NCBI GenBank assembly: GCA_021735655.1
Contig: JAIPGM010000011.1
Span: forward strand, 1-56,791
DNA from: Candidatus Omnitrophota bacterium
GTDB lineage: Bacteria; Omnitrophota; Gorgyraeia; Duberdicusellales; 4484-171
Length of the DNA stretch: 56,791 bases
Reading direction: 5' to 3'
Below the pieces are notes generated by a model, which did not search any database, was not told where the DNA came from, and saw only the letters and a program-made list of their open reading frames with translations. Below are positions 20,017 to 20,637 of this stretch, piece after piece. Every line of letters starts with the position of its first letter. Positions within the stretch are counted from its first letter, which is position 1. The translations under genes were made by a program, and so were the position numbers.

Positions 20017-20637
20017 TCAGGCGATAACTGCAGAATATTCTTCGTTACTGCAACCACACCAATTAGGACAATTTCTAAAATTACTTGAAGTAAGGTTCCC
20101 GTCGTCAAGTGCCTGGTCAATCTTTGTTGCTACAGAAGAAGATATCGGGCAGGCTCCGTTTCCGCCGTCAGCCGGATTGTAACACCAATCTTCAAAGTCA
20201 AACCAAATTTCTCTTGCTGGGCCTTTTTCGCAATCGTGAGATTGAATAGCATAAGAATTCTTCCAGGGAGTCTTTCCTTTTAATTTTTCAATATAAGGTC
20301 CGTCCCAACCAGACATATCATTATTAGGATCGCTATCGTTATTTGGATCATTAACTAACTCGCTAAATCTAGCATCATATGGAGTGGGATTAGGATGATC
20401 TATAAATACCAAAAATCCAGTGGGGCTGGTAGTATGAATATGATTTTCTATACCCCATTTACCTGTATCAGCATACAAGGAATAAATAGAAGTCTTTACG
20501 GCTTTAAAGTCGCCTATTGTTTCAGTAATTTTCGCTTTCTCAATAGCTTTAAAAGCATTGGGAGCTATGATAGCGGCTAGAATGGCTATGATAGCAATTA
20601 CTACGATTAGTTCGATTAGAGTGAATGATTTTTGCAT
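20017..20637 (-). CDS. Type IV pilin / T2SS pseudopilin-like protein with class III signal peptide and Cys-rich C-terminal domain
   Basis: The N-terminus MQKS-FTLIELIVVIAIIAILAAI is a prepilin N-methylation motif with Glu at +5. Seven Cys residues lie in the C-terminal ~90 aa. GGAGG Shine-Dalgarno sits upstream on the minus strand. It is the only convincing minus-strand gene in the window. Confidence 0.85.
   Translation of the reverse strand: MQKSFTLIELIVVIAIIAILAAIIAPNAFKAIEKAKITETIGDFKAVKTSIYSLYADTGKWGIENHIHTTSPTGFLVFIDHPNPTPYDARFSELVNDPNNDSDPNNDMSGWDGPYIEKLKGKTPWKNSYAIQSHDCEKGPAREIWFDFEDWCYNPADGGNGACPISSSVATKIDQALDDGNLTSSNFRNCPNWCGCSNEEYSAVIA

Follow-up and report, generated by a model that had tools for sequence, protein, structure and literature searches.

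We examined a 56,791-bp window, which is the complete contig JAIPGM010000011.1 of a Candidatus Omnitrophota bacterium (assembly GCA_021735655.1), and focused on a pilin gene at 20017..20637 on its minus strand (hereafter the query). The gene belongs, as a dispersed paralogue, to a large family of type IV pilin/GspG-like proteins found mostly in Omnitrophota, and its product, which is already annotated in the source database as a prepilin-type protein, is a GspG/PilA1-like subunit of the type IV pilin class rather than a certified GspG. A preliminary description had presented Ser at position −1 of the prepilin peptidase site as an oddity of this gene. This view did not survive comparison with relatives, as Ser at −1 is normal for the Omnitrophota family and no peculiarity of the query. 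We consider that the gene probably encodes a functional, dispersed variant pilin subunit, which would be cleaved at S|F, N-methylated and polymerised by a machine encoded elsewhere in the genome.

A word-indexed search returned 1009 full-length homologues, of which those with a named organism were all labelled Omnitrophica, and an exhaustive search of representatives at 50% identity gave 207 clusters at E <= 1e-30 and a superfamily of 276,595 at E <= 1e-3. The query matched the Pfam profile N_methyl (PF07963; 29.0 bits against a cutoff of 21.2, E = 6.9e-7, residues 2–24) and TIGR02532 (29.7 bits against a cutoff of 16.3), which, together with the homologues, bears out the pilin identity proposed in the preliminary description. 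Conservation was assessed in a family alignment of 106 sequences including the query, which is 38–65% identical to the other 105 over the full length. N_methyl matched 106 of the 106 members, and T2SSG (PF08334, E <= 0.01) matched 59 of them. Fifteen positions are invariant (F5, T6, L7, E9, I14, A15, I16, L20, A22, P26, E33, W111, G113, Y115, and W125), and the query has all 15 in addition to the conserved Cys pair C152/C163; that is, it carries the traits of the Omnitrophota N_methyl and PilW_C family. The most conserved part is the mature N-terminus (residues 5–58; 20464..20625, minus strand), with Phe at +1, Glu at +5 and a long alpha-1 helix, as seen in the N_methyl match, the structural model and the alignment. 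Such invariance of Phe+1 and Glu+5 and near-invariance of the helix would be anticipated for subunits undergoing cleavage and packing into a filament. Annotation of the family depends on the version of the Pfam model: the precomputed Pfam record assigns PF22434.2 (PilW_C) to the query and nearly all of its relatives, whereas the local PF22434.1 gave no match at E <= 1 for the query and matched 15/106 of the family.

Members of the family are scattered through genomes, with at least 11 loci in the metagenome-assembled genome (MAG) JAHKAJ01 and at least 7 in CAZFML01, and tandem pilin triplets occur amid housekeeping genes (locus L001). Others are part of complete clusters. Locus L003 comprises secretin, GspE (MshEN + T2SSE), pilins, GspF, and PilM, while P0004 (56% identity to the query, Ser at −1) lies within a secretin-GspE-…-GspF-PilM cluster, and the order at locus L006 is A24 peptidase … GspE, four family pilins … GspF, PilM. 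At L003, a gene for an ATP-binding cassette transporter ATPase and three genes without Pfam matches (6817-9925) stand mid-cluster, between two pairs of family pilins. Full-length relatives were also found in Firmicutes (Neomoorella, Desulfofundulus, Clostridium, and Peptococcaceae), beside PilB/PilC-type genes and a prepilin peptidase. In addition, several third-party-annotated MAGs with the titles 'uncultured Planctomycetia' or 'Atribacterota' each contain more than one Omnitrophota-type member (loci L006, L009-L013, L015, L034, L039, L041, L044, L048, L055, and L069; records CAZVRU01, CAZFML01, CAZNWL01, CAYWXH01, CAYVYZ01, CAZPNW01, and CAZBLX01), with P0006 and P0009 both on the 197-kb contig CAZVRU010000002, and the taxonomic labels of these bins may be unreliable.

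The open reading frame (ORF) of the query encodes 206 residues from an ATG start, with the N-terminus MQKSFTLIELIVVIAIIAILAAIIAPNAFK. The class III signal peptide MQKS|FTLIEL can be read directly in the sequence, as the preliminary description had it: the basic leader MQKS (20626..20637, minus strand) has four residues including one Lys, Ser occupies −1 (TCA, 20626-20628), and Phe+1 and Glu+5 are kept. Leaders of the family follow the mode M-K/R-K/R-x, and that of the query is likewise short and positively charged. Gly or Ala is allowed at −1 (PMC3244431); the query has neither, and its TCA codon is two changes away from any Gly codon. The preliminary description had left room for an alternative upstream start that would supply a canonical G|F junction. 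We checked this and excluded it, since an in-frame TAA (20647-20649) and a TAG just 5' of the ATG leave no alternative start that could give such a junction, and a strong Shine-Dalgarno sequence, AAGGAGG (20642..20648, minus strand, read directly), stands 4 nt 5' of the ATG. Further upstream, a consensus scan found a promoter-like TTGATT-18 nt-TAGAAT with a TG extension (20656..20685, minus strand), a pattern match that would provide a putative promoter. It falls within the 91-bp intergenic region that the gene shares divergently with truA; at its other end the gene converges on asd, with 20 bp between both stop codons.

Among the 120 best hits, the −1 residue was S in 57, G in 36, A in 9, V in 6, N in 3, T in 3, H in 2, and F, C, and L in one each, so Ser was the commonest. 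Gly came first in the set of 150 representatives taken at 50% identity, with G in 64, S in 52, A in 17, T in 6, Y in 2, and V and N in one each, and Ser was present in 53/106 of the family alignment. The preliminary description had named homologues that form a conserved pseudopilin family with standard features as a refutation; this is essentially what the relatives show, except that the standard of this family is itself non-canonical. One MAG holds S, T, Y, V, H, and G versions together. All Firmicutes relatives, on the other hand, have G|F. A literature search found no comment on the −1 residue of Omnitrophota pilins.

The −1 residue was further compared with genomic context at about 40 loci plus L003, L006, L009, L019, and L022, treating the Planctomycetia- and Atribacterota-labelled MAGs as Omnitrophota-type. 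At non-Firmicutes loci, members within 10 kb of secretin, GspE, GspF, or PilM genes had mostly Gly (G16/S4/A2; Gly in 16/22), while members without machinery in view had mostly other residues (S19/G8/A2/T2/F/V/Y/H/C; non-Gly in 28/36), a difference with a Fisher p of 2.7e-4 for sequences that are related and non-independent and loci that are of unequal visible length. Nevertheless, Ser at −1 is not confined to orphan positions, as at L006 a Ser-1 pilin lies 47 bp after GspE and is followed by three further family pilins (−1 = Ser, Ala, and Gly) in the same cluster, which has its own peptidase.

Genes for A24 peptidases were found near Ser-1 family pilins at three Omnitrophota-type loci (L006 3349-4176, L009 7748-8569, and L022 140-802), and at L009 and L022 the distance is 1-1.5 kb. 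We collected the 120 nearest homologues of the L009 enzyme (P0243-P0362). All 120 have PF01478 and PF06750 domains, a CxxC…CxxC methyltransferase motif and an invariant GLGD(V/I)DF, in front of which the commonest variants have a conserved RK[KQ]ESIEGE.ES segment, and most also have an IDIDYHAIP motif containing the first aspartate. Judged by these sequences, the prepilin peptidases of Omnitrophota appear to be a tight group, with one conserved PilD-like enzyme near Ser-1 pilins. Two Firmicutes enzymes have GGGDVKL (Neomoorella) and GWGDVEI (Clostridium mobile) at the GLGD position and lack the RK[KQ]ESIEGE.ES segment; that this motif difference is related to tolerance at P1 is speculation. 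The family resembles the archaeal PibD substrates, in behaviour only, in having very short leaders (3-4 residues) and −1 residues other than Gly, and archaeal PibD is reportedly more permissive than FlaK and cleaves leaders of 3-4 residues (PMC4307647). It differs from them in being a bacterial family, and the Omnitrophota peptidase is of the bacterial, bifunctional type, with a four-Cys methyltransferase domain (PF06750).

If the query is a functional subunit, it would be transcribed from its own promoter in the asd/truA gap, and the prepilin would enter the inner membrane via its class III signal peptide. The leader MQKS would then be removed between Ser-1 and Phe+1 and the Phe N-methylated, giving the predicted mature peptide (Me)FTLIELIVVIAIIAILAAIIAPNAFK. 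The enzyme responsible would be the phylum-typical bifunctional PilD-like A24 peptidase/methyltransferase, which would evidently serve Ser and other −1 residues, and polymerisation of the mature subunit would fall to a secretin-GspE-GspF-PilM machine whose genes lie in another part of the genome.

The C-terminus of the query departs from that of its relatives. Its TGA stop (20017-20019) stands at a position where the family has W in 64/106 members (TGG), followed by D in 89/106, within a family end of W-D-A-[LYW]-stop, and downstream of the TGA the query retains an in-frame D-A-L-TAA (20005-20016; whole segment 20005..20019, minus strand, from the alignment). TGA ends 14/59 other genes of the window, so it can be read as a true stop, and four residues are missing from the protein; the truncation is consistent with a single TGG>TGA change that left D-A-L-TAA as a relic. 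Recoding of TGA (code 4 or 25) was considered and dropped for the same reason, and because standard-code ORFs cover 95% of the window. Furthermore, W203, present in 84/106 of the family, is Ala in the query, which also has G127N and G185S. General decay of the gene was not supported: the query deviates at 2/55 conserved columns, which equals the family median.

Several observations weigh against a processed and assembled subunit. The contig has no peptidase or assembly genes: a phmmer comparison of every ORF of the window with machinery proteins found no homologues of secretin, GspE, GspF, PilM, or A24 peptidase, apart from a single weak PilM-type match at 43789-44934, which is most likely FtsA, judged solely by its place in a cell-division cluster. 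No second pilin motif was found in six frames of the window. The preliminary description had noted the lack of adjacent pilus assembly genes, and by phmmer and Pfam labels this extends to the whole contig. The enrichment of non-Gly −1 residues in scattered copies would also fit a class of unprocessed subunits, and the loss of the last four codons including the conserved Trp-Asp, together with W203A, could mean relaxed constraint. In Pseudomonas aeruginosa, Gly −1 is called invariant, a G-1D change prevents processing, and subunits have to be cleaved before they can assemble (10.1101/2022.05.13.491915). Given this rule, cleavage after Ser is putative, and that after Val, Tyr, His, and Phe in the paralogues still more so.

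These points could be taken to indicate an unprocessed or decaying paralogue, whose product would keep its leader and either remain a bitopic inner-membrane protein or be turned over, the scattered non-Gly copies being relics or having a non-filament role such as regulation or a recombination reservoir. The segregation of Gly near machinery from Ser and other residues away from it, the bulky −1 residues (Y, V, H, and F) of some paralogues, the three substitutions and the relic beyond the TGA, and the unprocessed G-1D variant all speak for such a paralogue. We regard it as unlikely, given that Phe+1, Glu+5 and the entire alpha-1 helix vary little or not at all, also among Ser-1 and scattered copies, that the number of deviations in the query is only the family median, and that a Ser-1 pilin comes first after GspE in the complete L006 cluster with its peptidase. 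The strong Shine-Dalgarno sequence and the promoter-like site have been kept as well, and the Fisher test was made on non-independent sequences. A broader proposal, which we offer tentatively, is that Gly −1 has been given up across the whole Omnitrophota pilin family (Ser > Gly > Ala, with Thr, Val, Tyr, His, Phe, Cys, and Asn too, sometimes within one genome). This may have come about either through a relaxed, PibD-like P1 specificity of the phylum's single conserved PilD-like enzyme, with its conserved RK[KQ]ESIEGE.ES-LGLGDVDF active-site region, or with the scattered non-Gly copies being slowly processed or unprocessed pilin-like membrane proteins in which the −1 residue acts as a tuning knob for filament entry.

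Turning to the kind of subunit encoded, the AlphaFold2 model (predicted local distance difference test 91.4, predicted template modelling score 0.85) has an N-terminal helix of 52 residues (7-58) and a beta-sheet head, that is, a long N-terminal helix with an alpha-beta roll, and its lowest-confidence part (72-86) is the extended alpha-beta loop. The top structural match was the Gram-positive type IV major pilin PilA1 of Clostridioides difficile (PDB 6t8s), at a sequence identity of 19%. The comparison with PilA1 draws on the full-length Firmicutes relatives of the family that stand beside PilB/PilC-type genes and a prepilin peptidase; these relatives, though not PilA1 itself, differ from the Omnitrophota members in having Gly at −1 and lacking the conserved Cys pair, and the Omnitrophota clusters include a secretin, unlike the PilA1 system. 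In terms of profiles, the best NCBIfam match was GspG (TIGR01710; 51.5 bits, under its cutoff of 88.85), and T2SSG (PF08334) scored 15.6 bits, under the cutoff of 21, at residues 101-133. The query shares with GspG (PulG, EpsG; TIGR01710, PF08334) the class III signal peptide, Phe+1, Glu+5, the long alpha-1 helix and the GWDGPY…PW head region. Unlike GspG, it falls under the curated cutoffs, has Ser rather than Gly at −1, is ~60-70 residues longer, has an extended alpha-beta loop and belongs to no gsp operon, as it sits between asd and truA on a contig without gsp genes. The family as a whole is also unlike GspG in its conserved predicted disulfide and its many paralogues per genome.

A periplasmic pseudopilin in the GspG role, forming the short piston of an exporter resembling a type II secretion system (T2SS), for example for giant proteins and glycoside hydrolases of Omnitrophota, is an alternative to be weighed on these matches. 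It draws on TIGR01710 as the best NCBIfam match, on the T2SSG matches in 59/106 members, and on PulG as the only PDB chain whose alignment went past the helix and reached the head domain when PDB sequences were searched by profile (profile positions 6-116, E 1.2e-10); some sources also name relatives 'type II secretion system protein GspG'. In Omnitrophota, moreover, the giant genes come after conserved T2SS-like loci, which contain many small genes with class III signal peptides (10.1101/2023.11.21.568195; 10.64898/2026.06.07.730766). We nevertheless find this role distinctly unlikely for the query, which is under both GspG cutoffs and whose top structural match is a true pilus subunit, while its full-length Firmicutes relatives lie beside genes of PilB/PilC type. 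Firmicutes are generally regarded as lacking an outer membrane and hence a classical T2SS. A surface filament also suits better than a piston the large number of paralogues in a genome, whose loops are hypervariable and whose predicted extra disulfides differ, and Seymour et al. class the Omnitrophota systems as type IVa pili (PMC10066038). The query itself does not have a type IVa D-region, because its two conserved Cys lie inside the chain, with 10 residues between them and ~43 more after the pair, and PF00114 (PilA/PilE) gave no match for the query and matched 1/106 family members.

Two further groups of proteins were compared. The best PDB sequence matches of the query were to the Geobacter pilin N-terminal domain, and according to Seymour et al. 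conductive pilins are predicted to be sparsely distributed in the phylum (PMC10066038), so a conductive 'e-pilin' for extracellular electron transfer was also considered. We dropped it, as hardly credible, because of its size and the spacing of its aromatic residues: the matches to Geobacter are limited to the shared N-terminal helix (residues 2-60), and the mature protein of 202 residues (isoelectric point 4.6) has a large globular head, an ordinary 10.9% F/Y/W and a largest aromatic-free gap of 33 residues. The pseudopilin-like paralogues of the Planctomycetes-Verrucomicrobia-Chlamydiae (PVC) group (Verru_Chthon, TIGR02596/TIGR02599) resemble the family in their many scattered genes, near-identical prepilin N-terminus and variable heads, and a similar likeness probably extends to the expanded planctomycetal N_methyl proteins. 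The query, unlike them, has a GspG/PilA1-like head, and it matched TIGR02596 and TIGR02599 only over the N-terminal helix and far under the cutoffs (24.2 < 70 and 12 < 256.5).

The head domain contains six Cys (C136, C152, C163, C190, C194, and C196). The preliminary description had pointed to a Cys-rich C-terminus with seven Cys in the last ~90 residues; its own list sums to six, and although the Cys are indeed there, they are not unique to this gene. C152 and C163, separated by 10 intervening residues (20149..20184, minus strand; predicted disulfide loop from the alignment), are a family-wide pair, present in 98/106 and 100/106 members, respectively, and co-occurring in 98. The other four co-occur in the same 8/106 members, with the motif FR.C…NWC.CS; C190, C194, and C196 (NCPNWCGC; 20050..20070, minus strand) and C136 (20230-20232) make up this four-Cys block, which on sequence appears to define a six-Cys subfamily including the cluster-encoded P0005 and P0009 and so links the query to pilins of pilus clusters. 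Other subfamilies have different extra Cys pairs. From the co-occurrence of Cys, the periplasmic head would be expected to fold with three disulfides, the family-wide C152-C163 and two subfamily-specific ones.

The alignment also revealed an acidic motif, K-I-D-x3-D-D-G-N-x3-G (residues 172-185; 20083..20124, minus strand), with Ser at 185 in the query. It is conserved at D174 (103), D178 (105), D179 (97), G180 (93), and G185 (104) among the 106 members. GspG (EpsG/PulG) is known to carry a calcium site in its C-terminal loop in place of a disulfide; the family holds both the conserved Cys pair C152/C163 and the KID-x3-DDGN motif. By analogy with the GspG site, the motif may be a cation-binding site.

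The extended alpha-beta loop (residues 59-126; 20260..20463, minus strand) ends in the conserved GWDGPY…PW motif, and the stretch from G59 to W111 has 52 residues against a family median of 32. Part of the excess is an acidic tandem repeat, NDPNNDSDPNND (20317..20352, minus strand), a lineage-specific loop insertion encoded by two 18-nt units that are identical at 14/18 positions. The tandem Asp/Asn repeat that had been described earlier is thus real and is present as VNDPNNDSDPNND at residues 95-107. The corresponding alignment columns are gaps in about 85-90% of family members, and the DPNND repeat is common only to the nearest relative, P0002 (60% identity), where it reads DDPNSDADPNND. A cation-binding or adhesive role of the loop is plausible, and metal binding is possible. 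In a variant subunit, such a long, acidic and surface-exposed loop might change the adhesive or cation-binding surface of the filament.

As for the genomic location, the gene was inserted secondarily between asd and truA. In the related contig L088 (3956-5745), leuC-leuD-leuB-asd-truA follow one another without interruption, asd being separated from truA by 24 bp that contain no pilin gene, from which it follows that the pilin came to the site secondarily; the Asd and LeuB proteins of L088 are 57% and 72% identical to those of the query contig. Two other relatives have unrelated genes after asd. The synteny of leuC-leuD-leuB-asd is kept in three related metagenome contigs (L088 3956-5745, L087 3995-8342, and L086 4273-4672), and what follows 3' of asd differs per contig: truA directly, a 527-residue protein resembling tetratricopeptide repeat proteins and then a gene that is recJ-type by eye, or a minus-strand membrane gene. 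The 3' junction of asd appears to be a rearrangement hotspot.

The preliminary description had suggested acquisition on account of a GC content slightly above that of the neighbouring genes and the lone orientation. Its idea of a later arrival holds in view of the L088 synteny, whereas the GC argument fails: the gene has a GC content of 0.386, compared with a window value of 0.377 and with values of 0.400 in asd and 0.398 in leuB, and its GC content at third codon positions (0.29) is the lowest of 11 neighbouring genes. Foreign origin by GC was thus dropped. Recent horizontal acquisition from outside the phylum would account for a gene that interrupts a co-directional housekeeping array and for the absence of anything in the 24 bp between asd and truA of the related genome. 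It is very improbable, however, since the GC content at third codon positions lies within or below the local range, the labelled close homologues are all Omnitrophota-type, and no mobile-element signatures were found round the gene (no flanking repeats other than short ones at chance level, no integrase junctions, and no transfer RNA gene). Moreover, in a massively paralogous family, duplication and relocation within the genome or phylum explain the insertion. The source was most likely a paralogue from within the phylum; as the composition is native and every labelled close homologue belongs to the phylum, the insertion is most simply explained by a paralogue that was relocated.

The lone orientation noted in the preliminary description was confirmed, the pilin gene being the only minus-strand ORF of at least 60 residues in the window that overlaps no ORF of the plus strand, by whose ORFs 95% of the window is covered. 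The plus strand carries all 59 other gene-like ORFs of at least 100 residues, and over the 15-26 kb stretch that was profiled the GC skew stays positive. Strand bias and GC skew suggest that the contig in its entirety belongs to a single leading-strand replichore.

Omnitrophota are regarded as predators or parasites relying on pili and T2SS-like machines, and type IVa pili are near-universal in the phylum and expressed by V. archaeovorus (PMC10066038). Taken alone, the query carries little weight, since it merely adds another scattered pilin paralogue, from a nanobacterium that is uncultured. A genome can hold as many as a dozen or more copies of this one pilin type, with variable surface loops and differing predicted disulfide patterns, which points to surface variation or host-range adaptation. 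The residual interest lies at the level of the family, where the Gly-1 rule is relaxed throughout the phylum, more often so in scattered copies and alongside a conserved variant peptidase, which offers a modest lead. With more than half of the subunits breaking the rule, the family provides a natural substrate panel, together with a conserved variant peptidase, for the P1 specificity of intramembrane aspartyl proteases.

By Pfam labels, the neighbours of the pilin gene within ±10 kb are all housekeeping genes (leuCDB, asd, truA, tyrosine recombinase, poly(A)/CCA polymerase, rbfA, truB, ribF, mraZ, rsmH, and ftsI). The contig has two separate genes of the PolyA_pol family (CCA-adding or poly(A) polymerase type), at 4757-6199 and 23552-24829, the former also with RNA-binding and HD domains.

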